From Mesonia oceanica (GTDB lineage: Bacteria > Bacteroidota > Bacteroidia > Flavobacteriales > Flavobacteriaceae): a stretch of 64,000 nt of DNA. Both the position numbers and the translations under genes were made by a program. The stretch spans positions 93,178 to 157,177 of the forward strand of contig NZ_CABVMM010000009.1 of NCBI RefSeq assembly GCF_902499555.1, read 5' to 3'. Below the pieces are notes generated by a model that did not search any database, was not told the DNA's origin, and was given only the letters and a program-made list of their open reading frames with translations. Position 1 is the first letter of the stretch; every line of letters starts with the position of its first letter. Positions 28,086 through 45,366 of this stretch are shown here, piece by piece.

Positions 28086-28847
28086 CTAGAGTTTATTTTT
28101 CAGTTTTAAAAATTCCTGTTCCAGAAAATTCAGTTTTTCCTCTACATTTTTTCCTGAATTTTGCTCAGGGATACGTTTAAAAAATACATATCTTACTTTC
28201 CAGAGTTCTTTAATTTCATTCAAATCAAAAGTTAGATCATCCACACTTTTATGATCTGCTCTTAGCGTTAATTTATTCTTCGCAATATAGAGCCTGCGTA
28301 AAATAAGTTCGTCTTTCACAAGCGCTAGTACAATATTCCCGTTGTTTAATTTTTTATAAACACTGCTCGGTACATATTCACCAATCACTACATCTTTCGG
28401 GTAGAGACCTTGGTCGTGGTCGGTCATTTCTAAATTTGAAACCGTATAGGCCCTAAACTTTTTTTCGGTATTTATAGGAAGTTGAAGTGTAGGTAATCCT
28501 GCAATAAATTGATCATCTTCAAATTGAAGTAGGTAATCTTTTGTGTTTTGTTCTGTAATACACGGGATAGAAGCAAAACTCTCCTTCATCCTTTCTTCTA
28601 CTTTTAACGAAAGATCACCTTTAAACTTTAATAGATGATTTACGGTAAGTTCTTTAGTGAGCAAATCATCAATGGTGATGCTAAAATAATTAGCTATTTT
28701 AAGGATCGTTTCAATTTTGGGTTCACTTCTTCCTTCCTCATAAGCTCCTAAAGTTCCACGTTTTAAGTCAAATAAGTCTGCAAAGGCCTGCTGACTCATA
28801 TTTCTTACATTTCTTATTTTTCTAATGTTTTTACCAAAAAGAGACAT
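28086..28847 (-). CDS. XRE-family HTH + S24 (LexA/phage-repressor-like) domain transcriptional repressor
   Basis: 253 aa; N-terminal HTH_XRE (IRKIRNVRNMSQQAFADLF...YEEG), C-terminal S24-like beta domain (AGLP...GEYV...K); divergent from the pspA cluster. Confidence 0.6.
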   Translation of the reverse strand: MSLFGKNIRKIRNVRNMSQQAFADLFDLKRGTLGAYEEGRSEPKIETILKIANYFSITIDDLLTKELTVNHLLKFKGDLSLKVEERMKESFASIPCITEQNTKDYLLQFEDDQFIAGLPTLQLPINTEKKFRAYTVSNLEMTDHDQGLYPKDVVIGEYVPSSVYKKLNNGNIVLALVKDELILRRLYIAKNKLTLRADHKSVDDLTFDLNEIKELWKVRYVFFKRIPEQNSGKNVEEKLNFLEQEFLKLKNKL

Positions 28848-29114
28848 ATTTTGCTAATTATATTTGCAATATTAAATTTTATTTGTATCTTTATCTAAGA
28901 TTATTAGCTAATATACAATTAAATTGCTAATTAAATAGTCTGAATTTAAAATTAGACTAAAATAATTAGCATTAAATGTTAATTAAATTTTAAAAAAACG
29001 AAGCCTTATGTTATCTTTAATTTTAATAACTTATCCCCATTTGTATTGCTTTTTGGAGCAAAGTGGAATGTTATGTGAACTATTACTATAAACCAGCGAA
29101 AAACCAATATTTGA

Positions 29115-29510
29115 ATGAAAGATCATTTTCAAATTACCAAAAACTTTTTATTGGAGCTTAATTTCAATATTACTTATGAGAATCAAAAAGACGAAGTTAT
29201 AGTGGTACAAAAGGAAAACTTCGGCATTAAAAATTTAATTCTAGGAGTTTCACCGCCTATATTAATTATGGAGCAATTCATATTTAATATCAGCAATCAA
29301 TCAGAAAAAGTCTTTAGAAGTCTATTGCAGAAAAATCGGGATATTATTCATGGCGCTTTTGTGTTAGACGAATCTGGAACTCGTGTAATTTTTAGGGATA
29401 CACTCCAAATAGAAAATTTAGACCTTAATGAACTCGAAGGTTCGTTAAACTCATTGAGCTTATTAATGAGTGAATACTCAGACAACATCATAGAATTTTC
29501 AAAATATTAA
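29115..29510 (+). CDS. YbjN-like (T3SS-chaperone-like fold) putative sensory/chaperone protein
   Basis: 131 aa acidic protein, size and composition similar to YbjN family; first gene of cluster with pspA. Confidence 0.35.
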   Translation: MKDHFQITKNFLLELNFNITYENQKDEVIVVQKENFGIKNLILGVSPPILIMEQFIFNISNQSEKVFRSLLQKNRDIIHGAFVLDESGTRVIFRDTLQIENLDLNELEGSLNSLSLLMSEYSDNIIEFSKY

Positions 29511-29521
29511 AAACCATTATT

Positions 29522-30235
29522 ATGAACATATTTAGACGATTATTTAAAATAGGAGAGTCAGAAGCCAATTCTGCTATCGATAAAATGGAAGATCCCATTA
29601 AAATGACAGAACAAGGAATTAGGGATATGAAGCAAGATTTAGAAAAAAGCCTGGAAGCTTTAGCGCAAGTGAAAGCTTTAGCAATTCGTGCTAAAAACGA
29701 ACAGGAAGAACATCAGGATAAAGCTGAAGATTACCACAATAAAGCGATTTTAATTTTGAAAAAAGCTGAAAAAGGACAAATGGAAAAAGAGGAAGCAGAT
29801 CGTTTAGCTAAACAAGCTTTGGTAAAAAAAGAAGAAGCGCAGCAACACGTTAGCCGTTCTAAAGAAGAGGTGAAAAAGTTTAATGAATCGATCGCTCAAT
29901 TAGAAAATAATATTCAAAATATAAAAGCGAATATTAGCAATTGGGAGAACGAACTAAAAACGCTAAAAGCTCGGGTGAAGGTTTCTAATGCTACCAAGAA
30001 TTTGAATAAACAAATGGCAGAGATTGATAGCTCAAGTACCGTTTCTATGCTAGAGCGTATGAAAGAGAAAGTAGCCCAAGAAGAAGCTTTGGCTGAAGCT
30101 TATGGCGATATAGCCAATGCTTCTAAATCTATAGACGAAGAACTTGAAAAAGCCGCAGATACTTCAGAAGCAAAAGCCGATGACGATTTATCTAAACTTA
30201 AAGAACAATTAGGACTTAACAATAAAGACGCATAA
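29522..30235 (+). CDS. pspA: PspA/IM30 (phage shock protein A / Vipp1, ESCRT-III-like) family protein
   Basis: 237 aa all-helical coiled coil; N-terminus MNIFRRLFKIGESEANSAIDKMEDPIKMTEQGIRDMKQDLEK matches PspA/IM30. Confidence 0.8.
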   Translation: MNIFRRLFKIGESEANSAIDKMEDPIKMTEQGIRDMKQDLEKSLEALAQVKALAIRAKNEQEEHQDKAEDYHNKAILILKKAEKGQMEKEEADRLAKQALVKKEEAQQHVSRSKEEVKKFNESIAQLENNIQNIKANISNWENELKTLKARVKVSNATKNLNKQMAEIDSSSTVSMLERMKEKVAQEEALAEAYGDIANASKSIDEELEKAADTSEAKADDDLSKLKEQLGLNNKDA

Positions 30236-30237
30236 CC

Positions 30238-30939
30238 TTGAACGACTTGATCAACATCATATTTTCTGAAGTAAACCTTGTACTTACCTGTTTACTTCTT
30301 TTATTAGTCGTTTATTGGATATTAACGATGGTTAGCGGAATTGACTTTGACCTGGATGTTGATGTGGATATTGATGTAGACGTAGATGCCGATGCCGGGA
30401 TCGAAGGTGGGAATATGGATTTTCAAGACGTCTCGAATGCCGAAGTAGATAAAGATACGGTTGTTGGTAAACGACGTCAGCCCCTAAAATGGTGGCAAGT
30501 ATTTTTAATTTATTTCAATTTCGTAGGCTTGCCCTTTATGTTCACTTTTACCTGTTGGGTTTTTGTCTGGTGGTTTATTACTGTATTTACCACAAGCCTT
30601 ACACATAGTTACGACTCCAGTTTCGGATTTTTAATTATGATTTTAGCCTTTATTCCGGCGCTTATTATTACTAAGGTGATCACGACACCATTCAAGAATT
30701 TTTTCAAAAATCTGAATAAAGATGGAGATAAGGCAGTCGATTATATCGGGAGGCGTGGCGTTATGCTTTCAACAGTTTCCGAAGAAAAAATGGGAAATGC
30801 AGAAGTCGTCATCGATGGTAATTCATACAATATTTACGTGAAGTCGCTAGACGGTTCGACCATAGCTTATCATCAAGAAATTTTAATCATCAATAAGTCG
30901 AAAGACAACAATTATTTTTTAGTACAAATCTATAACTAA
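30238..30939 (+). CDS. NfeD/YqiJ-like inner-membrane protein (partner of flotillin)
   Basis: 233 aa; N-terminal TM, acidic DV-repeat (DLDVDVDIDVDVDADAG), 3 more TMs, C-terminal OB-like soluble region; located immediately upstream of an SPFH/flotillin gene as in E. coli yqiJK. Confidence 0.5.
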   Translation: MNDLINIIFSEVNLVLTCLLLLLVVYWILTMVSGIDFDLDVDVDIDVDVDADAGIEGGNMDFQDVSNAEVDKDTVVGKRRQPLKWWQVFLIYFNFVGLPFMFTFTCWVFVWWFITVFTTSLTHSYDSSFGFLIMILAFIPALIITKVITTPFKNFFKNLNKDGDKAVDYIGRRGVMLSTVSEEKMGNAEVVIDGNSYNIYVKSLDGSTIAYHQEILIINKSKDNNYFLVQIYN

Positions 30940-30955
30940 CTTAACTTAAATTATT

Positions 30956-33046
30956 ATGGGAGATGTTTTACAGTGGATAGCAATACCGCTTATAGGATTG
31001 GTATTTTTAATCGTGATATACTTTGCGATTATTGCAATGTTTTACAAAAAAGTGCATCAAGGCCAAGCACTTATCCGTACCGGTTTTGGAGGTACAAAAG
31101 TAGCTACCGATAAAGGGCTGTATGTCGTGCCGGTATTTCACCGTGTCGAAATTATGGACGTATCGGTAAAGAAAATTCAAATCGAGCGTCAAGCTCATGA
31201 AGGTCTTATTTGTAAAGACAATATGCGTGCCGATATAAAAGTTGCTTTTTTCGTTCGGGTTAATAACGACGTGAGTTACATAAAAAAAGTAGCACAAACT
31301 ATAGGAGTAGCACGAGCTTCTCGTATTGAAACCTTAGAAGATTTATTTGAAGCCAAATTTTCTGAAGCTTTAAAAACCGTGGGTAAAAAGTTCGAATTTA
31401 TTGAGCTTTATGAAGCCCGTAGAGAGTTTAGGGACGAGATTGTAAATATTATCGGTACCGATCTTAACGGTTATACCCTAGAAGATTGTGCGATCGATTT
31501 CTTGGAGCAAACTCCGGTACAACATCTAAAACCGGATAATATTTTAGATGCTGAAGGGATTAAGAAGATCACCGATCTTACGGCTGCTCAAAATATTAAA
31601 GCCAACTTAATTAAGCGTGATGAAGAAAAAACCATCCGTAAACAAGATGTAGAAGCACGTGAAGCCATTCTAGAATTAGATAAGCAATTAGCAGAAAAAG
31701 AAGAATCTCAAAAACGAGAAATCGCTAATATTAAAGCTAGAGAAGGTTCAGAAATTTTAAAGGTTGCTGAAGAAGAGCGCTTAAAGTCTGAAACTGCTCG
31801 TATTGCTACTGAAGAAAAAGTGAAGGTTGCCGAAGAGAATATGAACCGTCAAATTATTGTAGCTGAAAAGAATAAACTACGTACCGAGGCTGTGGAAACA
31901 GAACGAGTAGAAAAAGATCGTTTGTTGGAAGCTACAGAGAGAGAGCGCGTAGTCACTTTAGCTCAAATAGAAAAAGAAAAAGTAGTTGAAGTAGAGAAGA
32001 AAAACATACAAGATGTGATTAGAGATCGTGTCATGTTAGAAAAAGGAGTGGTAGAAGAGCAAGAAAATATGAAAGATATTGAAGCCTTTAAAACTGCCGA
32101 CCGTGAGAAGAAAGTAAAAGTAACCAATGCGGAAGCAAACGCTCAAGAAGAATTAATTAAAACCATTAAAGCTGCAGAAGCTCAAAAAGAAGCTGCCAAA
32201 CAGAAAGCAGAAGAAATTAATATAGAAGCGATGGCTCGTAAAGAAGCGAGTGAAAAAGAAGCCGAAGCTAGAAAGACATTAGCAGAAGCTCAAGCTAAAG
32301 AAGAAGCCATTATTGGTATGTCTGAAGCACAAGTAATGCATGCGAAAGCAGATGCTAACGAGCGTCAAGGTATTGTAGATGCTTCCATTATCGAGAAAAA
32401 AGCGAAAGCAGAAGCTGCAGGGATTGAAGCCAAGGCAGAAGCTTCTCGAAAAGAAGGTAAAGCAGAAGCAGAAGTGATTAAAGAGAAAGCCCTTGCCGAT
32501 GCTGCCGGAATTGAAGAAAAAGCTGCGGCCATGAAGAAGTTGGATGGTGTTGGTAAAGACCACGAAGAGTTTAAACTTCGTTTAGATAAAGAATTACAAA
32601 TTGATTTGGCACATATCAATATCCAAAAAGATATTGCCGATGCACAAGCGCAAGTTCTAGGTGATGCTTTAAAACAAGCGAAGATTGATATTGTTGGAGG
32701 TGAAACTATGTTCTTCGATAATATTGTATCGCAAATTAGTCGCGGTAAAGGTATCGACAGGTTAGTTCAAAACAGTGAGAATATTCAGCAAGTGAAAGAT
32801 TCTATTTTGGGGAGCGATGATATTCAAGGAAATCTATTAGAACGCGTTCGAGAATTTGCTGCTAAATATGGTATTTCTACCGAAGATCTCAAAAACTTAA
32901 CGATCGCCAATCTATTAATCGATTTAAAAAGCAAAACCAATAGTGATAAAGAACATACGATGTTTAGTAACCTATTGAACCTGGCTAAAGGTTTAGGATT
33001 GTCAGACAAGACCATTGGTGCCGTAGGAAGAGAGCGTTTAAGCTAA
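30956..33046 (+). CDS. Flotillin-family SPFH/band-7 protein (YqiK-like) with long E/A/K-rich coiled-coil tail
   Basis: 696 aa; N-terminal TM, SPFH domain, ~350 aa of EAKA-type heptads. Confidence 0.8.
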   Translation: MGDVLQWIAIPLIGLVFLIVIYFAIIAMFYKKVHQGQALIRTGFGGTKVATDKGLYVVPVFHRVEIMDVSVKKIQIERQAHEGLICKDNMRADIKVAFFVRVNNDVSYIKKVAQTIGVARASRIETLEDLFEAKFSEALKTVGKKFEFIELYEARREFRDEIVNIIGTDLNGYTLEDCAIDFLEQTPVQHLKPDNILDAEGIKKITDLTAAQNIKANLIKRDEEKTIRKQDVEAREAILELDKQLAEKEESQKREIANIKAREGSEILKVAEEERLKSETARIATEEKVKVAEENMNRQIIVAEKNKLRTEAVETERVEKDRLLEATERERVVTLAQIEKEKVVEVEKKNIQDVIRDRVMLEKGVVEEQENMKDIEAFKTADREKKVKVTNAEANAQEELIKTIKAAEAQKEAAKQKAEEINIEAMARKEASEKEAEARKTLAEAQAKEEAIIGMSEAQVMHAKADANERQGIVDASIIEKKAKAEAAGIEAKAEASRKEGKAEAEVIKEKALADAAGIEEKAAAMKKLDGVGKDHEEFKLRLDKELQIDLAHINIQKDIADAQAQVLGDALKQAKIDIVGGETMFFDNIVSQISRGKGIDRLVQNSENIQQVKDSILGSDDIQGNLLERVREFAAKYGISTEDLKNLTIANLLIDLKSKTNSDKEHTMFSNLLNLAKGLGLSDKTIGAVGRERLS

Positions 33047-33055
33047 ACTATTATT

Positions 33056-33086
33056 AACCTACAAGGTTTTACAAACCTTGTAGGTT
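33056..33086 (+). terminator. Perfect 14-bp palindrome AACCTACAAGGTTT-tac-AAACCTTGTAGGTT after flotillin gene
   Basis: Direct reading; shares CCTACAAGG core with hairpin at 38306-38347. Confidence 0.45.
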
Positions 33087-33358: not shown

Positions 33359-36300
33359 ATGCAAGAAGAACAACAAGAACAAAACAATCAGACCTTAGAT
33401 GGTGGTACCTATGAGATTATAAAGAGCCGATTGCAAAAGCAGAAGCAAGAGCTTCAGCAGCGTTTGCAACAACTTAACGAAAGCAGAAAAGAAGTTTTCG
33501 GTTCTTTAGAAACCAAACTCATTGCCAATAATCGCATCAATACCGAGAATAATTGTATTGCTAGAGATATTGTTTCTATCGATAAGCTTTGCATCTTTGG
33601 ATACAATGTTCATTTTGGTTTACGTACCGAAATTACGCTAGATGATGTATTTAGTATTTACGAATATAAAGATCAGCAGTTTGAACCGGTTTCTTTAGCG
33701 CTTATTGAAGATAGTACTTTTCAGACCGATTTTACCAACCTTTACAAATATTACAGAAATACCATTTTTTCCAAGTTTGCCATCATCGGTAATTACTTAC
33801 ATATGGTTTTTCAGCTGAGTGATAGCGTCACCGATATAAAAACCTTCAAGTGGTTGATCAATGATGGCAAGCTAAGCTATATTGACAATCGAAGTGAACA
33901 CGAATATAAATTTCCGCAGCAGCACGAGTTCAATTGGCAACAAGCCGGAAGAGATGAACAGCGTCACGGGGAACATTCACATATTTCTATTTTAGATAAG
34001 GTTTTTGTAGAAACTATTGGTGGCGATCTCACGATAAAAATTGAAGACAACACTCACGATGGGAAAGGGATCTATAACGAACCGGTTGAATACCAAGATC
34101 AAACCTTGGATGACGGTCAGTTTAGATTTGCCAATTTAGGAAACCTCATTGTGTTAGAGATTAAACCTTTTCAGGAAGAGGCACGTTATTTTGTTTACAA
34201 CCATAAACTACAAGAGGTTCAAAAAATAGATAGCATAAAAGATGCTGCAGTGTTGCTACCCGATGAACAAGGCATCATTTTTCCGAATGGTTACTATTTG
34301 CAAACTGGGGAATATCAAATTTTTGATAGTGATACCCGCAATTTAAAATTTCAAAAGAGAATTGCTTCACCTAACGGGGAAGATTACCTTTTTGTGTTTT
34401 ACGCGCAAGATCGCGGGATGTATGTGTTAATGTCTTACAACGTGATTGAGCAAACGGTACAAACGCCAATTATTTGTAATGGTTATACCGTTCAGCCCAA
34501 TGGTGAGTTATGCTATTTTAAAGGTGAAGAGGAGCAAACCAAACACCATATGGTACAAATTTGGCAAACCCCATTTTTAAAAGGAGATATCATGCCTTCG
34601 CAACATCAAGATACGATGTTGTATAAGATAGGGAATAAGGATATTGTTCGCGCGATGGCAGAGGCCCAAGAGCTCATTAATTTATTAAGCAAAGAAGATA
34701 ATTATAGCGGACTTTATGATGATGTAGCCAAACTTTCTAAAGATATTTTAGATACTTATTATTGGCTGTCTGAAGAAGAAACCCAGCAGTTGAACCTTCC
34801 GTTATCAGAAATTAATAAAGCAGCCAATGCTGCTATTGATGAGTTTGAAAAAGTAGTTCAGCTTAAGCGGAATGCCAAGCAAGAAACAGAGAAATTTACC
34901 AAGAAAGCAGAAGAGGTTTTTTCAAAAGTAAAAAGCACTTCCTTTAAATCGATTGAAGATTTTGTAAAGCTTTTAAACCAAATGCGAACCTTACGTGGGG
35001 AAGCGATTGGTCTATATGAAATCAGGTATGTTGATGAAACCCTGATCAAATCGATAGAAGAAGAAATTGCTGAATTTACCGAAAAGATTTCTCAACGATG
35101 CGTTCAGTTTTTGTTAGATGAAAAAGCTTTGGCTCCGTATCATGAGAAGGTCGAAGAAAAAAAGATAGCGCTCGATAAAATTGAAAAAGTTATCGAAGCG
35201 AAAAATCTGGAAGAAGAAGTCAACCAAATTGCACAAGACTTAGAAATGCTTATCGAGATTGTTTCGAATCTTGATATTGAAGATACTTCGCACTCTACCA
35301 AGATCATCGATAATATTTCGTTGATTTTCGCTACGCTGAATCAATTAAAAGCGGCGATTAAAAATAAGCGGAAAAGTCTAGGGAGCAAAGAAGCTAAAGC
35401 CGATTTTGCAGCCCAATTAAAATTGATTGATCAGAGCATTATCAATTATTTGGATATTGCTGACACGACCGAGAAAACCGAAGATTTTCAAACTAAAATT
35501 TCAATTCAGTTAGAAGAGTTAGAAGGAAAGTTTGCCGATTTTGAAGAGTTTATCAGCCAAATCATTGAAAAGCGGGAGGAAGTTTACAATGCCTTTGAAG
35601 CGCGGAAAAATGCTATTACCGAAAAGCGAAACAAGCGAAGCTTAGCTTTAGAAAATGCCGCCGATCGCATTCTAAAAGGTGTGGATAAGCGTGCGTTAAA
35701 TTTAGGTTCTGCTACCGAGATCAATGGGTATTTTGCTTCCGATCTAATGGTGAATAAACTTCGGGATATTATTCAGCAATTAAAAGATTTGGACAATTCC
35801 GGGCGAGCAGAAGAGCTAGAAACCAAGCTAAAAGTCGCTCGGGAAGATGCCTTACGTAAGCTAAAAGATAAGCTAGAATTATACGAAGATGGCGATAACG
35901 TCATCAAGTTTGGGAAGCACAAATTTGGCGTGAATAAGCAAACGCTTGATTTAACAATTGTTTATCGTAATCATCAACTTCAATACCATTTAACGGGAAC
36001 CGATTTTTATGAAGAAGTGACCAATCCCATCTTATTAAATTCAAGAAGCCTTTGGGATCAAGAATATATTTCTGAAAATGAACAGGTGTATCGAAGTGCC
36101 TATTTGGCTTATAAATTATTCAGCAGTCTTCCTTTTTCAAAGCTAGCAAATGCCAATTCAGAAGAACTATTAAAAACTGTTCAAGAAGAAAGTAGTAGCA
36201 ATTATGCCGAAGGTTATGTAAAAGGAGTTCACGACAGAGATGCGGCTGATATTTTAGAAGTCTTGGTACGTAAACATCAAGAACTGGGTTTACTTCGCTA

Positions 36301-38227
36301 TTCGCCTAAAACCAGGGCTAAAGCTCAGTTTTTTTGGCATAGTTTACCAGAAGAACTTCAACAGAAATTTAATGAAGTTTTAAAATCTTCCGGAGAAGTT
36401 TTGAGCTTTTTTCCTGATACGAAAGAATACGATTTTTTAATTCAGCAATTAGAAAGTGCTATTTTTCAAGTGGCAGAAAACTCGGTCTTACTTTCTACGT
36501 CAAATAGCAAAGCGATGGCCAATTACTTGTTTGAAGAATTGCAGGGCGACGATCAGTTTCAAATAAGTGGAGATGCTTTGAAGATCAAAGAAGGTTTCTT
36601 GAAGACGCTTCAGGAAAAGCAAGCCGATTTAAAATTTAAGAACAGCTATGAAAAATTAGACGAGCTTGAAGCTAAAATTCAGCTAATTCGGCAATGGGTA
36701 AATTCTTTCCTAAGAACATCTTCTGCTAATTATGAGGAAGTCTATGTAGATGAGGTAGTGGCTATCATCTTGTTTAGCGATGATTCTGTTGAGAAAGTTA
36801 AGCATATTTCGGCAAGGGAAACCATTCAAGATTTAAAAGGCGATCACCCGACTTTAAAAGAAGGGGAGTTTCAATTTAACTATCATGAGTTTATTGCTGC
36901 TTTAGCCGCATATAATGAAGAAATTGTACCGGCTTACCAAGCGTTTAAAAAAGCAAAACAAGAAGTTACTGAAAGTTTAAAAGAAGATTTAAAACTGGAA
37001 GAATTGAAACCAAGGGTGTTGACTTCTTTTGTGAGAAACAAGCTCATCAACGAAGTGTATTTACCGCTTTTTGGAGATAATTTATCGAAGCAGTTAGGAA
37101 CTGTGGGCGATTACAAACGCACCGACAGAATGGGAATGTTGCTGCTCATTTCGCCACCGGGTTACGGAAAAACCACTCTAATGGAATATATTGCCAATCG
37201 GTTAGGATTGGTATTTATGAAAATCAATGGTCCTGCGATAGGACACGAAGTCACTTCGGTAGATCCGGCGGCAGCCAACAACTCGGCAGCGCGAGAAGAA
37301 CTAAAGCGACTGAATTTGGCTTTTGAAATGGGCAATAATGTCATGTTGTACTTAGATGATATTCAGCATTGCCATCCTGAATTTTTACAGAAATTTATTT
37401 CGCTCTCTGATGGAACCCGAAAAATAGAAGGGGTTTATAAAGAGAAATCAAAAACCTACGATTTACGCGGAAAGAAGTTTTGTGTGATTATGGCAGGAAA
37501 CCCATATACCGAAAGTGGAGAAAAGTTTAGGATTCCCGATATGTTGGCCAACCGAGCCGATATTTACAACTTAGGAGATATTATTGGTGATACCGCACAT
37601 TTATTCAAATTAAGTTTAATCGAAAATGCACTCACCTCTAACCCGACTTTACAGCAATTAAGCAGTAAACATTTTGATGATATTTATCGACTGATTGATC
37701 GTGTGGAAAATCAAAATCCTGAAATTCAGCTGGAAGGTAATCATACGCCACAAGAAGTGCAGGACTATGTTTCGGTTTTAGAGAAAGTAATTACGATTAG
37801 AGATACTGTGTTGAGGGTGAACGAAACCTACATCAAATCGGCTGCGATGGAAGATGAATATAGAACAGAACCGGCATTTAAATTACAAGGTTCTTATCGT
37901 GATATGAATAAACTGATCGGTAAAGTCGTGCCGATTATGAATAAAGAAGAACTTGCTACTTTATTACTGTCTCATTATGAAAGTGAATCGCAAACGCTCA
38001 CCACTTCTGCAGAAGCGAATTTATTAAAGTTTAAAGAGCTTCAACAAAATTTGACTGCCCAAGAAAATGAACGTTGGAATGTGATTAAAGAAACCTTTCT
38101 GAAAAACAATAAACTGAAAGGCTTAGGCAATAAAAATGAAATGGCTCAGGTATTGAACCAAATGGTGGCCTTCACAGATAATCTAGAAGGCATTAAACGA
38201 GTTTTGGAGCAAGGTTTTATGAAATAG
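33359..38227 (+). CDS. Giant (1622 aa) multidomain protein with C-terminal AAA+ ATPase domain of the MoxR/dynein-like (AAA_5) type; function unknown
   Basis: Walker A LLISPPGYGKTTLMEYIA (~aa 1265), Walker B VMLYLDDIQH, sensor-1 CVIMAGNP; Q/E-rich N-terminal coiled coil, beta-rich region aa ~60-420, long central helical/coiled-coil region. Confidence 0.7.
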   Translation: MQEEQQEQNNQTLDGGTYEIIKSRLQKQKQELQQRLQQLNESRKEVFGSLETKLIANNRINTENNCIARDIVSIDKLCIFGYNVHFGLRTEITLDDVFSIYEYKDQQFEPVSLALIEDSTFQTDFTNLYKYYRNTIFSKFAIIGNYLHMVFQLSDSVTDIKTFKWLINDGKLSYIDNRSEHEYKFPQQHEFNWQQAGRDEQRHGEHSHISILDKVFVETIGGDLTIKIEDNTHDGKGIYNEPVEYQDQTLDDGQFRFANLGNLIVLEIKPFQEEARYFVYNHKLQEVQKIDSIKDAAVLLPDEQGIIFPNGYYLQTGEYQIFDSDTRNLKFQKRIASPNGEDYLFVFYAQDRGMYVLMSYNVIEQTVQTPIICNGYTVQPNGELCYFKGEEEQTKHHMVQIWQTPFLKGDIMPSQHQDTMLYKIGNKDIVRAMAEAQELINLLSKEDNYSGLYDDVAKLSKDILDTYYWLSEEETQQLNLPLSEINKAANAAIDEFEKVVQLKRNAKQETEKFTKKAEEVFSKVKSTSFKSIEDFVKLLNQMRTLRGEAIGLYEIRYVDETLIKSIEEEIAEFTEKISQRCVQFLLDEKALAPYHEKVEEKKIALDKIEKVIEAKNLEEEVNQIAQDLEMLIEIVSNLDIEDTSHSTKIIDNISLIFATLNQLKAAIKNKRKSLGSKEAKADFAAQLKLIDQSIINYLDIADTTEKTEDFQTKISIQLEELEGKFADFEEFISQIIEKREEVYNAFEARKNAITEKRNKRSLALENAADRILKGVDKRALNLGSATEINGYFASDLMVNKLRDIIQQLKDLDNSGRAEELETKLKVAREDALRKLKDKLELYEDGDNVIKFGKHKFGVNKQTLDLTIVYRNHQLQYHLTGTDFYEEVTNPILLNSRSLWDQEYISENEQVYRSAYLAYKLFSSLPFSKLANANSEELLKTVQEESSSNYAEGYVKGVHDRDAADILEVLVRKHQELGLLRYSPKTRAKAQFFWHSLPEELQQKFNEVLKSSGEVLSFFPDTKEYDFLIQQLESAIFQVAENSVLLSTSNSKAMANYLFEELQGDDQFQISGDALKIKEGFLKTLQEKQADLKFKNSYEKLDELEAKIQLIRQWVNSFLRTSSANYEEVYVDEVVAIILFSDDSVEKVKHISARETIQDLKGDHPTLKEGEFQFNYHEFIAALAAYNEEIVPAYQAFKKAKQEVTESLKEDLKLEELKPRVLTSFVRNKLINEVYLPLFGDNLSKQLGTVGDYKRTDRMGMLLLISPPGYGKTTLMEYIANRLGLVFMKINGPAIGHEVTSVDPAAANNSAAREELKRLNLAFEMGNNVMLYLDDIQHCHPEFLQKFISLSDGTRKIEGVYKEKSKTYDLRGKKFCVIMAGNPYTESGEKFRIPDMLANRADIYNLGDIIGDTAHLFKLSLIENALTSNPTLQQLSSKHFDDIYRLIDRVENQNPEIQLEGNHTPQEVQDYVSVLEKVITIRDTVLRVNETYIKSAAMEDEYRTEPAFKLQGSYRDMNKLIGKVVPIMNKEELATLLLSHYESESQTLTTSAEANLLKFKELQQNLTAQENERWNVIKETFLKNNKLKGLGNKNEMAQVLNQMVAFTDNLEGIKRVLEQGFMK

Positions 38228-38305: not shown

Positions 38306-38347
38306 AAAAACCTACAAGGTCTTTTTTGTTTGACTTTGTAGGTTTTT
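38306..38347 (+). terminator. Rho-independent terminator (aaaaacctacaa...ttgtaggttttt + T-run) after the 1622-aa gene
   Basis: 12-bp stem, followed by ttttttt. Confidence 0.5.
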
Positions 38348-38743
38348 TTTATCCTATGACTATAAAAGCTTTTATTAAAGTTTAACGTTGAATGAAATTA
38401 GGGGATAAAATTTCCGGGGAAATTCAATAATTAGTCTAAAGTACCTAGAAAACTTTTGTATGAAATACAGTTTACTATTTCTATGATCGGTATTTTATCT
38501 TTAAAAACTAATGAATATCCAAGGTAGTTGTAGGTAAATAAGAATTTTATTTTCAATAAAAAAATATTAAAAAATCATTAAATTTATGTTTTCTTTACAT
38601 TATCTTTATTTTAAGGTGCATGATATAAGATTATTAAATTTTAACCTATGGATATTGTGATTAACGTAATAATGATATTAGGAGGTATTTCCTTTTTAGG
38701 GATTGTCTTGGATGAATTAATGAAGACTTTATAGGTCTTAACA

Positions 38744-39373: not shown

Positions 39374-39595
39374 ATGGAATCATTAGCATCATTTGTAAAA
39401 GCACGAAGAAAAGAAGTAAACTTAACCCAAGAAGAGTTTGCAAATCGAGCAGGGGTAGCATTAACCGTTATCCGTAAGATAGAACAAAACCAAACAAATT
39501 TGAACCTGGATAAAGTAAATCAGGTGTTAAAAATGTTTGGTCATCAACTAGTACCGGTTAGTTTAAAAGATATAGAAGTTAATGAGGCAAGCTAA
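39374..39595 (+). CDS. hipB: HipB-like XRE-family HTH protein (73 aa)
   Basis: HTH_XRE motif LTQEEFANRAGVALTVIRKIEQNQTNLNLDKVNQVLKMFG; first gene of 3-gene operon with 14-nt overlap to next ORF. Confidence 0.65.
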   Translation: MESLASFVKARRKEVNLTQEEFANRAGVALTVIRKIEQNQTNLNLDKVNQVLKMFGHQLVPVSLKDIEVNEAS

Positions 39596-39914
39596 GATTT
39601 TTTACGATACTGCTTATTGTGGTAAACTAACAGAGACCAATGATGGAGAGTTCGTATTTAAATATGATGAAAATTACGTGCGTGACTATCCCAATCAATT
39701 TATCACTTTTACCATGCCTGTTCGTAAAAAAGAATATAAAGAAAAACGCCTGTTTGCCTTTTTTGAAGGTTTAATTCCTGAAGGTTGGCTATTGGATATT
39801 GCTTCCAAAAATTGGAAAGTTAATAGAAACGACCGAATGGGATTATTGTTGACTTGTTGTAAAGACTGTATAGGAGCAGTAAGTGTTCACCCCATAGCAA
39901 CTGATGATGAGTAA
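39582..39914 (+). CDS. hipS: HipS-like protein = stand-alone HipA N-terminal (couple_hipA) domain (110 aa), putative antitoxin
   Basis: FFEGLIPEGWLLDIASKNWKVNRNDRMGLLLTCCKDCIGAVSVHP matches HipA N-domain consensus (LLPEG...GxDCxGA). Confidence 0.65.
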   Translation: MRQAKIFYDTAYCGKLTETNDGEFVFKYDENYVRDYPNQFITFTMPVRKKEYKEKRLFAFFEGLIPEGWLLDIASKNWKVNRNDRMGLLLTCCKDCIGAVSVHPIATDDE

Positions 39915-40848
39915 GTGTTTATACTGTTATAAAGAGGTTTCGGGAGAAAGTGACTTTCATCAAGCTTGTAGTTTAAGGTTTTTTGGAACAAAAACTCCTC
40001 CTAAAATTGCTCATTCTATTCAAGAAATGAAGGAATTAGCTAAACAGGTTGTAGAACGTAGCATAGCTGTTCCTGGGGTGCAACCAAAAATATCGATGTC
40101 TATATTTGATAATAATAGCGATCAGAGGCTTACCGTGGTAGGGGCATTAGGAGGAAATTATATTTTTAAACCACCTTCAGAACATTTTCCTGAAATGCCT
40201 GCCAATGAACATGTCACGATGAAAATGGCTGAATTATTTAATATTTCCGTTGTCCCACATTCATTGATCAGGCTTTCTTCCGGTGAATTATCTTATATCA
40301 CCAAACGAATAGATCGTAAAGAAGATGGAAGTAAAATTCATATGATCGATATGTTTCAGGTCGTAGAAGCATTTGATAAATACCGAGGATCGATGGAACG
40401 TATAGGGAAGGCGGTTCTTGAATATGCAGAAAATACGCTATTAGATATTTTGCGTCTTTTTGAATTAACTGTTTTTAGTTATCTAACGGGAAATAACGAT
40501 ATGCACTTAAAAAACTTCTCCCTAATAAAAGCAGATTATGGATGGACGCTTTCTCCAGCTTATGATCTGCTAAATATTTCTATTGTAAATCCGGACGATC
40601 AGGAAGAACTGGCTTTAACACTTGCCGGGAAAAAGAAAAAAATAACTAGAAAATTATTAGTCGATTTTGGTCTTGGTTTAGAATTAACCCCAAAACAAAT
40701 AAACGGGGTTTTTAAAAGATTTCAAAAGTCTAAAAATAAAGCTATTGACTTAATTCATAATTCGTTTTTAAGTGAAGAAATGCAGAAGTCTTATATAAAA
40801 TTATTAGAAAATAGGTATGAAATTCTCTTGAAAGAAAATGAGTTGTAA
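39904..40848 (+). CDS. hipT: HipT-like Ser/Thr kinase = HipA C-terminal catalytic domain (314 aa), putative toxin
   Basis: VPGVQPKISMSI (HipA 'GaQpKfsl' motif), catalytic loop GNNDMHLKNFSL, SPAYDLLN motif; N-terminal CxxC...H..C extension. Confidence 0.7.
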   Translation: MMSKCLYCYKEVSGESDFHQACSLRFFGTKTPPKIAHSIQEMKELAKQVVERSIAVPGVQPKISMSIFDNNSDQRLTVVGALGGNYIFKPPSEHFPEMPANEHVTMKMAELFNISVVPHSLIRLSSGELSYITKRIDRKEDGSKIHMIDMFQVVEAFDKYRGSMERIGKAVLEYAENTLLDILRLFELTVFSYLTGNNDMHLKNFSLIKADYGWTLSPAYDLLNISIVNPDDQEELALTLAGKKKKITRKLLVDFGLGLELTPKQINGVFKRFQKSKNKAIDLIHNSFLSEEMQKSYIKLLENRYEILLKENEL

Positions 40849-41038: not shown

Positions 41039-41866
41039 GTTGTGAATACCTTTCCAACTAAAGGCTGTTACAACGGTTGCAAAACCATTGAAAAGGAGTT
41101 GCCTGTTGTGAATACCTTTCCAACTAAAGGCTGTTACAACATGGTAGGGAAACATAACAAAGACGAAAGTGTTGTGAATACCTTTCCAACTAAAGGCTGT
41201 TACAACATTCAATCAAACAATTGTATTATAAAATTAGTTGTGAATACCTTTCCAACTAAAGGCTGTTACAACCAACAATGTATGGGCGATGAATGCCGCC
41301 TTGTTGTGAATACCTTTCCAACTAAAGGCTGTTACAACCAGATCGCTAGACAAAAGATTAAAAGACGGGTTGTGAATACCTTTCCAACTAAAGGCTGTTA
41401 CAACATGGCGTTCAAGACAATTGGAGACAAATAGGTTGTGAATACCTTTCAAACTAAAGGCTGTTACAACTTGCGGGATATGGTTATGATGAGATCGCTC
41501 GTTGTGAATACCTTTCAAACTAAAGGCTGTTACAACATTACCAGATGTTTTAACCCCTGTTACTATGTTGTGAATACCTTTCCAACTAAAGGCTGTTACA
41601 ACTTGTGACGATTGTATAACAAAAGAATTCTAGTTGTGAATACCTTTCCAACTAAAGGCTGTTACAACCAATACACTCCTCACAAGGCTTTTCGGTATGT
41701 TGTGAATACCTTTCCAACTAAAGGCTGTTACAACAAAAAATTTGGTATCCCTATTGAATACGATGTTGTGAATACCTTTCCAACTAAAGGCTGTTACAAC
41801 CATCGATCTTTCTTCACAAACAAGCGACTTGTTGTGAATACCTTTCCAACTAAAGGCTGTTACAAC
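41039..41866 (-). CRISPR. Type VI-B CRISPR array: 13 repeats x 36 nt (GTTGTGAATACCTTTCCAACTAAAGGCTGTTACAAC on +; transcribed form likely GTTGTAACAGCCTTTAGTTGGAAAGGTATTCACAAC), 12 spacers x 30 nt
   Basis: Repeats at 41039,41105,41171,41237,41303,41369,41435,41501,41567,41633,41699,41765,41831 (each +35); repeats 7 and 8 carry the same C->A change (TTTCAAACT); 36/30 nt geometry is diagnostic of Cas13b arrays; minus-strand orientation inferred from similarity of the reverse-complement to the published B. zoohelcum DR. Confidence 0.95.
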
Positions 41867-41961
41867 CTATTTTATATAAGGTATTGTTAATTAATGTGTT
41901 TATTGAAAAACCTTCAGATAAAATGATGTCAAAGAGCTTTACAAAGCTAAAATCATAATGC

Positions 41962-44900
41962 TTATTTAAATTCTAGTATGGTTTGATTTGTATATTCTAG
42001 GAATAATTCATTAAAATTAATAGACACTGCATTAGGCACATTTTTATAAATTTCATCGTAATAAATTTTTCTTGGTAATTGATTATGTGAAAACTTATTA
42101 CGTATCATTACTAATAAAAAAGCTTTTTCCATAATTTTTGATTGTTTTTTCAACTCATCTATAGGAGTAGTATCAAAATCTTTTTTGGAAATTAGCCATT
42201 TTGCGTCTTCTTCAGAAACTAATTCTAAGCTTTTAAGGAATGTGGTCAAATATTTATTAAAATTAGGATGTTCATTAGTATCAATTAATGTGGGTAATTT
42301 CTTGATCATATATTTTTCAAATTCCTGAATACTTTTTAGTAAATAATCTCTTCGTATTACCTCATAAGAATTTGCTTTTAGTTCTAAAACTTCTTCTAAC
42401 TCTGTTTTATTCCAAATCTTCTGAGGTTTATATTCAAAAAGGGTTTGTACTTTTTGACTAGCAATAAATTTTTTGAATTTTCCAAGTTCTTTTAGTTTAA
42501 CTTGGGGTTCGTAGATATTTTTACTGCAATAAGGTACCGTTAATGTCCATGCAGAAGTAGATTTAATGATGTTTGCTGAATTATCACCAGTAGTTTTATG
42601 GCTTTGGATTAAGGCAGCCTCGATTTCTGCTTTACGTTCTGTTTGTGTTTTATAAATATCACTGAGATTTAAATCTAAATGTTCAGCATCCTCAGGTAGG
42701 TATAATTCATTAAAAATAATACTGGCCATTTTAGCTAGTAATACATCTTGTTGTTTTACTTTGTTGATTTTAGATCCTTGAACTCTAATAAATCGCTTTT
42801 CTGTTTTTTCCTGTTCACCTGATAAATAAGCCGATTTATAATCTCGATCCCAACTATAGAATTTTTGATAATCAGTATGTTGGTTCCAGGCAACATACCA
42901 GTCGGCAAAACATTCCGGATTTTCCTGTATACTTTTACCTTTGATATAAGTAGGTTTGTGATCAAAAACACCTTTTGGAAACTGCATGGGCTTAACCAAT
43001 AGTTTTTCTACCTGTTCTTCTATAGTATCAATAACATACAGTCGCTTATGAAATAAATTCCATAGATGTTGTTGTTTTATGAATTTATCTAAAATCTTTT
43101 TGTTTGATCTAATTCCATTCAACTGATCTTTGAATCTTTGGAAGGTTTCTTTTCTGTTGTTTAAATAAGAGGTATAGAATGAAATAAAATCTCGCTTATC
43201 AAATGATCTTCTAATCCCATTGTTCCATAGATAAGCTTCGTTCTTAAAATCCCAAACCTCTTCGAGCAAGCTTAAGGGCTCTTTAGGTTGAATATCATAG
43301 AAAGCCAAAGATTTTTGCAATTGGCTATGATGCTGTCCTCGCCAATTTTGCCTACTTCCTTTTGGCATAAAACGCTTTAAATCATTAGCTAGCCAGGTAA
43401 CTTGTAGCCCTATTTCTTTATTGGTAAAAACATATTTTCGCTTTTGTTTGGGATCGTTTCGTTCTTTAATATGTAGAGCTATGGTTTGTAGTTTGTCATT
43501 GGTAACCGCTATTTCTTTTTCTATTGCGAGTTGAAGTTTGTCCAGATTTACTTCCTTTTTTTGTTTAGCTTTTAGAAGGTTTTTGGTAATCTGTCCTTTA
43601 GAAATATCGTCACCAGCTTTATAGTTGGTCAGTACATTATAGCGTTCTGCAATCTTTTGAGCTATTATTATTTCAATTTCTTCTGGAGTCTTTTTAGTTA
43701 AAACTAGGTGTAATAACGCAGGTAACTCATTTAAAGACAGCATTGCAACTGGAGCCAGTTTTTCAGGTTTACCCAAATCCTGTAAAATAGCATCCGGTTT
43801 TATTTTATTATCGGTTCTAACTTTATATTCTTCTGGATGATCCGATTTGTAACTAGAGTTTCGTTTTTTTAAACGACCTGCCACAATTTTCACCTCTTTA
43901 GGAAAAAAGTGTTCATTTAAATTGAGATGAATAGGAATGTTGTTTCCTACGAAATTGTAAGATGGATTAGGATATAGTTGTAGTCCTATGCTTTGGTGAT
44001 TTTCTTTTTCTTCAAAATATTTTTGTTTTAATTGAGCAGCCTCGCTAAGTTTTGCGAATGCTTTAATTTTTTCTTTTACGATTCTCTCAGTTACATATTT
44101 TGTGCCTTCAATAGGCTTTTCCCTTTTATCGTGTACATAATTTCCTAAATGAAGTTGAAACCGTAGGGTTGGAAAATCTACAAATTCATCTAAAAATCGT
44201 AATGCAAAATATGCGAATTTATTTTCATAGCGCTTACGGATTACAGGATGAATAACGGTGGCTTTATCTAAACTTTCTGAATTTTCTTCTTTAAGATATT
44301 CATTCATATCTTCTAGAAATTCATTCTTTAATTCTTCAGGAAGTACCTGGTAAAGCTCATCTGGGACTTTGCTTAATTCATCTACAATTTGCGCAAGTAG
44401 TGTGTCTTTTGTGAACGTAGTCGTAAATCTGTTTTTTAAACCTTTAAAACCTAAATAGCCAAACACCCAGTGGGTAGCCATATATTTTAAGCTATTATTT
44501 TTCTTATTTATAGGATTTTCTGGGTTAACAATCAGTTTTGCTTTAAAACCTTTTACCCGGCTTCTTAGATCTTCACTTTGCTTTTTGGTAAGGAAAAGTC
44601 CAAGAAGAAAAATAATCCCACTTTCAGATATGGTTACACCATTTTCAGTATCGATATCTTCAGTAGGGACAGCACTATAATATTTGCTTATAGTGTTTTC
44701 TTTAGGAAGAAGATGGGAAAAACTGTCATTCAAAATAGCGTTGGTGATAGCCTCTTTATCATTTAAATTAACTTTTTTTCCTTCTCTTTTTAACTTTTTA
44801 AGGTCTTCTAATTTTAATTTTTCTAATTGTGCTAATTCTTCAATCAACCCTTTTTTTAGCAATTGTTTGGAAGCATCAGTTTTCATTCGATGTTTTTTAA

Positions 44901-45366
44901 CATCATTAGCTACTGCTAAAAAAAGATCGTCTAATAATTTATAAGTTTCAGGAAATACAGGGATAGGTTTGTGGAAATGATGCGTGTAGAAATTACGATA
45001 ATCTCTGATTAAATTTTTGAGTACCTTGAGAGAATTCTTAAAGTAATTTCTTTGTTCAGAAATTAATTGGTTTTTAGGTACATTTTCGAACCTTTTATGG
45101 GATGTAGGTAAGTATAAATATCGAATAACAGGTAAATTTTTTTGTAGAAATTCGACACCTAATTGATATTCTGCTATAGCCTTGTCTTGAGTGAAAAAAT
45201 CTAATATACAAGACTTTGGTTTCATCCCAAACTTTTCTTTAAAAGCCTTGGAAAGATCGTTAATGTTATTTTGAGCTAAGTTAAAATATCCTCCAAAATA
45301 ATGTTTATCTTCTATACTGGCATAATTATACTCTAAGCGTTTTGCTAAATAATCGGTTTCATTCAT
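41962..45366 (-). CDS. cas13b: Cas13b (C2c6) RNA-guided RNase, type VI-B effector, 1134 aa
   Basis: HEPN1 RNFYTH at aa 124-129 (nt 44997..44980) and HEPN2 RNKFSH at aa 1089-1094 (nt 42102..42085); long stretches near-identical to B. zoohelcum Cas13b (e.g. HPVIRKRYENKFAYFALRFLDEFVDFPTLRFQLHLGNYVHD; GIIFLLGLFLTKKQ); adjacent 36/30 array. Confidence 0.95.
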   Translation of the reverse strand: MNETDYLAKRLEYNYASIEDKHYFGGYFNLAQNNINDLSKAFKEKFGMKPKSCILDFFTQDKAIAEYQLGVEFLQKNLPVIRYLYLPTSHKRFENVPKNQLISEQRNYFKNSLKVLKNLIRDYRNFYTHHFHKPIPVFPETYKLLDDLFLAVANDVKKHRMKTDASKQLLKKGLIEELAQLEKLKLEDLKKLKREGKKVNLNDKEAITNAILNDSFSHLLPKENTISKYYSAVPTEDIDTENGVTISESGIIFLLGLFLTKKQSEDLRSRVKGFKAKLIVNPENPINKKNNSLKYMATHWVFGYLGFKGLKNRFTTTFTKDTLLAQIVDELSKVPDELYQVLPEELKNEFLEDMNEYLKEENSESLDKATVIHPVIRKRYENKFAYFALRFLDEFVDFPTLRFQLHLGNYVHDKREKPIEGTKYVTERIVKEKIKAFAKLSEAAQLKQKYFEEKENHQSIGLQLYPNPSYNFVGNNIPIHLNLNEHFFPKEVKIVAGRLKKRNSSYKSDHPEEYKVRTDNKIKPDAILQDLGKPEKLAPVAMLSLNELPALLHLVLTKKTPEEIEIIIAQKIAERYNVLTNYKAGDDISKGQITKNLLKAKQKKEVNLDKLQLAIEKEIAVTNDKLQTIALHIKERNDPKQKRKYVFTNKEIGLQVTWLANDLKRFMPKGSRQNWRGQHHSQLQKSLAFYDIQPKEPLSLLEEVWDFKNEAYLWNNGIRRSFDKRDFISFYTSYLNNRKETFQRFKDQLNGIRSNKKILDKFIKQQHLWNLFHKRLYVIDTIEEQVEKLLVKPMQFPKGVFDHKPTYIKGKSIQENPECFADWYVAWNQHTDYQKFYSWDRDYKSAYLSGEQEKTEKRFIRVQGSKINKVKQQDVLLAKMASIIFNELYLPEDAEHLDLNLSDIYKTQTERKAEIEAALIQSHKTTGDNSANIIKSTSAWTLTVPYCSKNIYEPQVKLKELGKFKKFIASQKVQTLFEYKPQKIWNKTELEEVLELKANSYEVIRRDYLLKSIQEFEKYMIKKLPTLIDTNEHPNFNKYLTTFLKSLELVSEEDAKWLISKKDFDTTPIDELKKQSKIMEKAFLLVMIRNKFSHNQLPRKIYYDEIYKNVPNAVSINFNELFLEYTNQTILEFK

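Follow-up and report, generated by a model that had tools for sequence, protein, structure and literature searches.

What does an AAA+ ATPase of 1622 amino acids (aa) do at the end of an operon of membrane-organising proteins? The question is raised by a 64,000-nucleotide (nt) stretch of the Mesonia oceanica genome (the whole stretch analysed, hereafter the window; coordinates are positions within it), in which an uninterrupted open reading frame (ORF) at 33359..38227 on the plus strand encodes the protein. The ORF list and the translation agree in this with the original prediction, a brief reading of the DNA letters. The gene stands last in a cluster whose members share one strand and encode a CesT/Tir-like protein, PspA, a YqiJ-like protein, flotillin and the ATPase. 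Flotillins and PspA are conserved membrane organisers; we know of no ATPase for most bacterial PspA/flotillin systems, whose energy source and turnover mechanism are, to our knowledge, unclear. The ATPase is a member of a catalogued and named family whose operon has been published and whose function is uncharacterised. We see about an even chance that it supplies the ATP-driven part of a conserved membrane-stress module of flotillin (SPFH) and PspA, in which it would remodel these scaffolds.

The five genes of the cluster are as follows, with transmembrane segments abbreviated as TM.

29115..29510, plus strand: CesT/Tir-like chaperone-fold protein (Pfam CesT_Tir_1, PF22550, E 1e-55)
29522..30235, plus strand: PspA/IM30, a bacterial ESCRT-III-like protein (Pfam PspA_IM30, E 3e-44)
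30238..30939, plus strand: YqiJ/YuaF-like (NfeD-type) 3-TM protein, with three hydrophobic segments and no Pfam match
30956..33046, plus strand: flotillin of 696 aa, with one N-terminal TM segment, a Band_7/SPFH domain (Pfam Band_7) and a long coiled coil
33359..38227, plus strand: DUF3686-family AAA+ ATPase, whole gene, 1622 aa (Pfam DUF3686, DUF7902 and AAA/AAA_5; more than 4400 homologues)

The ATPase contains no hydrophobic segment and no predicted TM segment and is thus predicted to be soluble, and both its flotillin and its YqiJ-like neighbours are membrane proteins. The Hymenobacter orthologue of the YqiJ-like protein is annotated as DUF1449. For the gene context, 80 loci were collected from contigs representing one genome per species (Bacteroidota, Planctomycetota, Verrucomicrobiota, Desulfobacterota, Kiritimatiellota and Hydrogenedentes), neighbours were located by tblastn with the window proteins, and presence was counted over the 65 loci with enough upstream DNA. 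Flotillin lies directly upstream of the ATPase on the same strand in 62 of the 65, so the link to flotillin at which the original prediction had hinted is real. A YqiJ-like gene is found in 57 of these loci, PspA in 42, a divergent regulator in 39 and a CesT-like gene in 37. Annotated records of Pseudomonas (pQBR103), Streptomyces, Hymenobacter, Deinococcus and Vibrio also hold the flotillin-ATPase pair, which is thus present in Pseudomonadota, Actinomycetota and Deinococcota too. The CesT-like protein and PspA usually accompany the pair in Bacteroidota. The gene order of the cluster is kept across most Flavobacteriaceae genera, mostly at 69–93% identity, and across phyla, and the neighbourhood beyond the core genes differs from phylum to phylum. 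Because the linkage to flotillin (62/65) is tighter than that to PspA (42/65), flotillin is the more likely direct partner. An ATPase family locked to flotillin genes is a strong candidate for the missing motor of bacterial flotillin/PspA systems.

Some loci depart from the arrangement in the window (locus labels are ours). The gap between the tblastn matches of flotillin and ATPase is 0.8–1.7 kb in L004, L005, L009, L012, L023, L025, L043 and L071, against 312 nt in the window, and these wider gaps may hold an extra gene or an inserted element. In a Desulfococcaceae locus with a flotillin-less ATPase (L044, 6416-11944; 13655-15424), a TIR-domain protein (TIR_2, E 6e-24) is encoded about 1.7 kb downstream of the ATPase on the same strand. 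On the Pseudomonas fluorescens megaplasmid pQBR103 (L001, 84.4–97.6 kb), the flotillin-ATPase pair is joined to a YjfI-PspA-polyamine cluster comprising glutathionylspermidine synthase, DUF350, DUF1190 and DUF2491, and also a rhomboid protease; this locus links two of the PspA operon classes of Ravi et al., whose survey is described next.

This exact operon was described computationally by Ravi, Anantharaman, Aravind, Gennaro and colleagues (mSystems 2024, PMC11237479). The authors gave the beta-propeller/coiled-coil/AAA+ architecture from a Dokdonia genome, identified the 3-TM protein as YqiJ-YuaF and found abbreviated flotillin-YqiJ(-AAA+) operons to be widespread; their supplementary table lists Dokdonia donghaensis with the same gene order, including a divergent 'cHTH+Protease'. 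They proposed a role in membrane dynamics, and a chaperone-like function in building complexes linked to membranes (PMC11237479). The window adds no new kind of system. What it offers is a clean and compact example, with five genes, a repressor and operators in a Flavobacteriaceae genome.

Profile searches identify the family. PF12458 (DUF3686) matches the ATPase over aa 31-468 with 611 bits against a cut-off of 25 (E 1.4e-183), covering the whole profile (1-448), and PF25472 (DUF7902) matches the helical region at aa 589-673 with 96 bits against a cut-off of 26 (E 1.5e-27). Together with a single C-terminal AAA module, the length and the flotillin linkage, these matches identify a member of the DUF3686 family. 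The original prediction had staked itself on the protein not being a known, characterised family on profile search; the family turned out to be catalogued in Pfam, with a published operon in Dokdonia, and its function is as yet uncharacterised, so that only half of that expectation stood. A word-index search returned more than 4400 homologues. The best named one, from Mesonia phycicola, is 83% identical, most Flavobacteriaceae genera follow at about 70%, and the Dokdonia orthologues are 72% identical. When 1.84 billion cluster representatives were searched exhaustively with phmmer, 425 clusters (the library being clustered at 50% identity) reached E<=1e-30. Their full-length members are mostly 1550–1930 aa long; five longer ones carry the same three Pfam domains and nothing added. 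The family spans at least eight phyla. Full-length homologues at 35–49% identity (tblastn) are borne on plasmids of Hymenobacter, Proteus, Pseudomonas (pQBR103), Streptomyces, Nonomuraea, Deinococcus, Vibrio, Photobacterium and Halomonas, and the exact protein recurs in Tara Oceans marine metagenomes and in the metagenome-assembled genome GCA_002696985.1. NCBIfam yielded no model for the family and, like PHROGs, gave P-loop noise only, and no relatives were found in viral contigs.

The majority of the homologues are labelled 'DNA repair ATPase' in NCBI and UniRef names, and Pfam describes DUF3686 as an 'ATPase involved in DNA repair'. Taken at its word, the label would make the protein a repair ATPase that acts on DNA and is induced in an SOS-like response, a reading that we regard as very improbable. 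We found no support for the label and no paper that joins the name with flotillin or PspA, the Pfam scan of the ATPase showed no DNA-binding, nuclease or helicase domain, and the gene is consistently linked to membrane proteins rather than to repair genes. The database label is probably misleading; the two further observations that could favour it, a P-loop similarity to RuvB and the class of the adjacent regulator, are weighed below with the AAA+ module and with the promoter region.

The layout of the protein was examined in two AlphaFold2 (AF2) models built on a 50-sequence family alignment, one of aa 1-1200 and one of aa 1168-1622, both of which are confident (pLDDT 86 and 89.3, respectively). 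According to these models the ATPase consists, in order, of a beta-propeller, a long helical stalk, a middle module and one MoxR-type AAA+ module.

33407..33499, plus strand: N-terminal Q/E/K-rich helix, aa 17-47, preceded by a disordered tip at aa 1-15 (pLDDT <50)
33515..34567, plus strand: beta-propeller, aa 53-403, the core of DUF3686 (about 27 strands in the model; Foldseek matches to propellers in the PDB; Pfam E 1.4e-183)
34616..35881, plus strand: long-helix stalk or bundle, aa 420-841, including DUF7902 at nt 35123-35377 (helices of 20–58 residues, pLDDT about 75–90)
35900..36880, plus strand: middle module, made of a beta unit (aa 848-886), a helical domain (aa 912-1140) and strands (aa 1146-1174), pLDDT about 85–95
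37040..37573, plus strand: AAA+ alpha/beta core, aa ~1228-1405, with a five-strand core in the model
37574..38224, plus strand: helical lid and C-terminal helical extension, aa 1406-1622, with the LQGSYRD motif at nt 37883-37903

Foldseek searches of the PDB with the beta region returned the propellers of Elp1, Vps11, Vps18, CyRPA, prolyl oligopeptidase and YncE (E 6e-6 to ~2.6e-3). The beta-rich region of about 350 aa that had been read from the sequence is thus borne out and refined to a propeller. Of the Q/E-rich coiled coil placed at aa 1-50, the helix at aa 17-47 stands; a coiled coil is not shown there and aa 1-15 are predicted to be disordered. The 700 or so residues expected to be helical or coiled-coil do contain the long helices of aa 420-841 and the helical domain of aa 912-1140, and they also include a beta unit and strands. 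The middle module (aa 848-1174) has no Pfam match and no PDB sequence match. Foldseek alignments of the N-terminal model to large coat chains, with very low TM-scores, and to large intraflagellar-transport, nucleoporin and dynein chains, with TM-scores of <=0.13, were disregarded.

The catalytic motifs lie in the C-terminal part. GYGKTT, VMLYLDDIQH and CVIMAGNP all sit where the original prediction had placed them.

37151..37177, plus strand: Walker A, SPPGYGKTT (GYGKTT at aa 1268-1273)
37340..37369, plus strand: Walker B, VMLYLDDIQH, aa 1328-1337
aa 1355-1368, plus strand: pre-sensor-1 beta-hairpin, directly before the sensor-1 strand in the AF2 model
37481..37504, plus strand: sensor 1, CVIMAGNP, aa 1375-1382
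37532..37561, plus strand: IPDMLANRAD, a sequence motif with the candidate arginine finger R1398
37883..37903, plus strand: LQGSYRD in the lid, (near-)invariant in 72 representatives, with R1514 as the candidate sensor-2 arginine

Conservation was assessed in an alignment of the query with 71 full-length family representatives that are 25–45% identical to its aa 1-1200. SPPGYGKTT is kept in 68 of the 72 sequences; DDIQH, MAGNPY, (I/V)PDML(A/S)NRAD and LQGSYR(N/D)M vary little or not at all, and aa 1220-1420 form the most conserved stretch of the protein. The retention of these motifs across 72 diverged members goes far beyond chance, indicating that the gene and its ATPase site are real and under selection. 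Judged by these sequences, the nucleotide site appears intact, with the motifs for binding and hydrolysis and the candidate trans-acting arginine all conserved. Walker B reads D-D throughout the family rather than the D-E of the canonical hhhhDE pattern.

The region around the P-loop is predicted to fold as an AAA+ domain, with the five-strand core at pLDDT 89.3, as the original prediction had expected of a structural model. Which clade it belongs to is less plain from the sequence. Pfam AAA (31.8 bits) and AAA_5 (30.1 bits) give weak, near-equal matches over aa 1261-1385, with AAA_5 covering the stretch between Walker A and sensor 1; searches of PDB sequences, whether started from the query alone or from the family profile, yielded only P-loop matches to VCP, Rix7 and RuvB, and the NCBIfam MoxR models did not match the ATPase. 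The structure search with the aa 1168-1622 model ranked MoxR proteins first, with CbbQ and NorQ as the closest structures, and gave values of ~12.5 for ClpA/ClpB, 11.4 for RuvBL and 10.3–10.8 for Vps4. Foldseek E-values do not discriminate (all ~1e-6 for MCM, Rix7, CbbQ, RuvB and NorQ), and the target-normalised TM-scores are highest for NorQ (0.44–0.58) and CbbQ (0.49). The superposition on CbbQ covers 236 residues at 3.5 Å and suggests a similar placement of the lid. A conserved loop at aa ~1291-1308 (GHxVTSxDP) occupies the position of the helix-2 insert, and the model has no hairpin between beta2 and alpha2. The stretch NPYTESGExF(R/K)IPDMLANRAD after sensor 1 and the GSYR of the lid resemble the MoxR/AAA_5 patterns. 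The modelled structure thus supports a true AAA+ module of MoxR/AAA_5 structural type, as originally proposed, while the sequence profiles stay ambiguous. These results also bear on the repair reading: the resemblance to RuvB is limited to ~45 residues around the P-loop, at 20–22 bits against NCBIfam cut-offs of 282–299, the PDB profile matches do not extend beyond this stretch, and it is MoxR proteins that come first by structure.

Only one Walker A and one AAA match occur in all 1622 aa. The phrase 'dynein-like', if it meant concatenated AAA modules, is therefore contradicted, and we rejected the multi-AAA interpretation on this count. A PspF-like enhancer-binding protein was likewise rejected, since the chain has a lone AAA module and lacks a domain for sigma-54 interaction. 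That the protein is, in the broader sense, a cytoskeletal element or a mechanochemical motor like dynein is scarcely credible: dynein and midasin have six AAA modules where this chain has one, a domain for binding a track was not identified, propeller and helical domains make up the modelled N-terminal 1200 aa, and the dynein matches of the N-terminal model reach a TM-score of no more than 0.11, below the strength of the MoxR matches.

That the closest structures, CbbQ and NorQ, are maturation factors for cofactors and enzymes raises another prospect, namely that the ATPase acts as a chaperone of MoxR style in the maturation of one specific membrane client (cofactor insertion or complex assembly), for which flotillin is the platform and not the substrate. 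SPFH proteins commonly scaffold other machines, as HflK/C does FtsH, and the chaperone-like role proposed by Ravi et al. (PMC11237479) points the same way. The cluster, however, holds no conserved client gene beyond flotillin, YqiJ, PspA and CesT, its surroundings outside the core vary by phylum, and the von Willebrand factor A (vWA)/MIDAS adaptor is missing. The prediction of no vWA partner gene held: no vWA domain was found in the ATPase, in the eight neighbouring ORFs scanned or in the annotated loci of other phyla. We consider a maturation chaperone unlikely, while granting it some weight.

The cluster is preceded by a divergently oriented regulator gene, from which it is separated by an intergenic region of 267 bp (28848-29114).

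28086..28847, minus strand: HTH_3 and S24-like (LexA-like) regulator of 253 aa with a degenerate catalytic dyad (Pfam HTH_3 and Peptidase_S24; alignment with E. coli LexA)
28895-28907 and 28957-28969, no strand assigned: two exact CTAA-N5-TTAG palindromes, putative operators, in the divergent promoter region

A third CTAA-N5-TTAG lies at 28681-28693, just inside the regulator gene, so that all three sites in the 64-kb window are at this locus. The motif is the operator defined experimentally for one group of non-canonical LexA proteins of Bacteroidetes (PMC8565304). Among 38 related Bacteroidota loci, the equivalent intergenic regions hold 2.7 sites per kb against 0.055 elsewhere, an enrichment of ~50-fold, and at least one site is present in 20 of the 38. 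In the alignment of the operon-linked regulators (loci L004-L079) with E. coli LexA, anchored on a conserved Val and Met, the Ala-Gly cleavage site is absent, most regulators have Glu or Ala where LexA has the nucleophile Ser, and nearly all that were aligned have Arg at the position of Lys156. Given these substitutions, the regulators probably derive from LexA, act as repressors without cleaving and are dedicated to the PspA-flotillin-ATPase operon, and the Bacteroidota cluster would be repressed by the divergent LexA-like protein through the CTAA-N5-TTAG operators. A repressor that has lost self-cleavage would sense something other than RecA filaments. The LexA-like HTH-S24 class of the regulator and its LexA-type operators are what speaks for SOS induction of a repair ATPase; RecA-stimulated cleavage requires the Ala-Gly site and the Ser-Lys dyad that these regulators lack, and a true SOS link through the regulator was downgraded for that reason.

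Two hairpins stand at the ends of the flotillin and ATPase genes.

33056..33086, plus strand: perfect 14-bp hairpin just after the flotillin stop, with no U-tract (-21.8 kcal/mol, z -7.5)
38306..38355, plus strand: intrinsic terminator that follows the ATPase gene, a hairpin whose arms are again ACCTACAAGG, with 8 U (-20.6 kcal/mol, z -6.7)

The ATPase gene is thus flanked on both sides by ACCTACAAGG arms, of which the window has no further copy. The hairpin at the flotillin end may terminate transcription in part or stabilise the transcript; it may attenuate read-through and so yield more flotillin than ATPase transcript. The ATPase may instead have a promoter of its own inside the 312-nt spacer. 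Either the two hairpins serve to set different amounts of transcript along the operon, or each is a copy of one small repeated element; Rfam gave no match within 28.8–39.6 kb.

Downstream of the ATPase, the window encodes a HipBA-like toxin-antitoxin module (39376-40848, plus strand), in which a small HTH gene of 73 aa (HTH_3/HTH_19 in identical contigs) is followed by a split HipA, made of a 110-aa Couple_hipA protein (39582-39914) and a 314-aa HipA_C kinase (39904-40848). A type VI-B RNA-targeting CRISPR locus lies about 3 kb from the ATPase. Its array (41042-41890), whose repeats are visible as repeated 'VVNTFPTKGCYN' peptides in spurious ORFs, adjoins the gene for a Cas13b of 1134 aa (41962-45366, minus strand; NCBIfam VI_Cas13b, E 2e-258).

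These neighbours lend some colour to the idea that the ATPase belongs to an anti-phage or abortive-infection system, with flotillin and PspA protecting or permeabilising the membrane. Large multidomain ATPases are common in defence systems, and PspA owes its name to its response to secretin stress from phage. Large plasmids carry homologues, and one stand-alone homologue, that of L044, has a TIR-domain gene nearby. Against this, the only match of the ATPase in PADLOC-DB 2.0 is a 16.5-bit P-loop match to mad8, the operon partners gave only generic HTH and coiled-coil noise in PADLOC, viral contigs hold no relatives, and the cluster contains no effector domain (nuclease, NADase or pore former). 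Moreover, a gene order kept across Flavobacteriaceae genera and phyla resembles a vertically kept housekeeping stress module and not a patchy island. A defence role is in our judgement improbable.

How might an ATP-driven component of the flotillin/PspA module work? By analogy with other AAA+ proteins of its clade, the ATPase would form a hexameric ring. Its six propeller-tipped arms would serve as built-in adaptors, a task that falls to a separate vWA partner in MoxR proteins, and would dock on the large membrane-attached flotillin assembly, on PspA/ESCRT-III-like polymers or on both, and ATP hydrolysis would assemble, disassemble or reshape these scaffolds during envelope stress or membrane repair. 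Comparable arrangements are the legs of RavA (a MoxR ring) on the LdcI cage, FtsH inside HflK/C cages, and Vps4 on ESCRT-III. A bolder version is more doubtful, and we offer it tentatively: an undescribed bacterial membrane-remodelling machine, in which a MoxR-type hexamer grips flotillin domes or PspA/ESCRT-III polymers with six propeller/helical arms and builds or strips them by ATP in membrane repair, controlled in Bacteroidota by a non-self-cleaving LexA-derived repressor. In the models, the propeller and helical layout is reminiscent of eukaryotic coat and tether proteins.

Several points weigh against the scaffold-remodelling proposal. The hexamer is an assumption drawn from related proteins, and contact with flotillin or PspA would follow from gene linkage by analogy. 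The data do not discriminate between flotillin, PspA and a client protein as the substrate. Three of the 65 loci (L044, L051 and L068) have the ATPase and no flotillin nearby, and co-transcription of flotillin and ATPase in the window is uncertain because a strong hairpin and the 312-nt spacer lie between the genes. The clade is ambiguous in sequence comparisons (AAA against AAA_5, with P-loops like those of VCP and RuvB). Since Walker B is invariantly D-D, the protein might run through a slow, switch-like cycle and not work as a processive motor. Finally, a literature search that included DUF3686 and PF12458 found no experimental work on any family member; the computational description by Ravi et al. 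was the one paper of relevance, and a preprint on a flotillin-associated rhodopsin had no bearing on the family. Family members within the genus Flavobacterium (L021 and L022) make the function open to experiment; some Flavobacterium species are genetically tractable.

The nearest known system is the Dokdonia donghaensis operon, also from Flavobacteriaceae, which is identical in domain order and gene order down to the divergent regulator and differs in nothing material. Relative to its published description (PMC11237479), the present analysis adds the assignment to an AAA+ clade, the operator motif and the degenerate S24 dyad.

Compared with the MoxR proteins CbbQ, NorQ and RavA, the ATPase shares the pre-sensor-1 beta-hairpin, the 'NP..G...(I/L)P.....R' pattern after sensor 1 and the 'GS.R' sensor-2-like motif. 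RavA, moreover, has helical legs that end in a beta-rich domain and dock on a large oligomeric partner. Unlike these proteins, the ATPase is about five times larger, which bears out the original description of it as far larger than MoxR chaperones; its AAA+ module is C-terminal, its Walker B is D-D instead of D-E, no vWA/MIDAS partner gene accompanies it, and the model shows no clear helix-2-insert beta-hairpin. Sequence profiles fail to separate MoxR from classical AAA or RuvB in this protein.

HflK/C-FtsH and prohibitin-m-AAA protease resemble the cluster in that an SPFH scaffold is coupled to an AAA+ machine, with an NfeD/YqiJ-type partner beside the SPFH gene. In contrast to FtsH and the m-AAA protease, the window ATPase lacks both a TM segment and a protease domain and belongs to another AAA+ clade, and its SPFH partner is a flotillin with a long coiled coil, unlike HflK/C and prohibitin. 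The combination that marks a Vps4-type ATPase, an MIT domain together with a classical-clade AAA module, was not found in the protein. The likeness to Vps4/CdvC and ESCRT-III lies in the pairing itself, an AAA+ ATPase encoded with PspA of the ESCRT-III superfamily (42/65 loci), and by this analogy a polymer-remodelling role like that of Vps4/CdvC is plausible. If the proposed machine is real, it would be a prokaryotic functional counterpart of Vps4-ESCRT-III or an 'uncoating' ATPase for flotillin.

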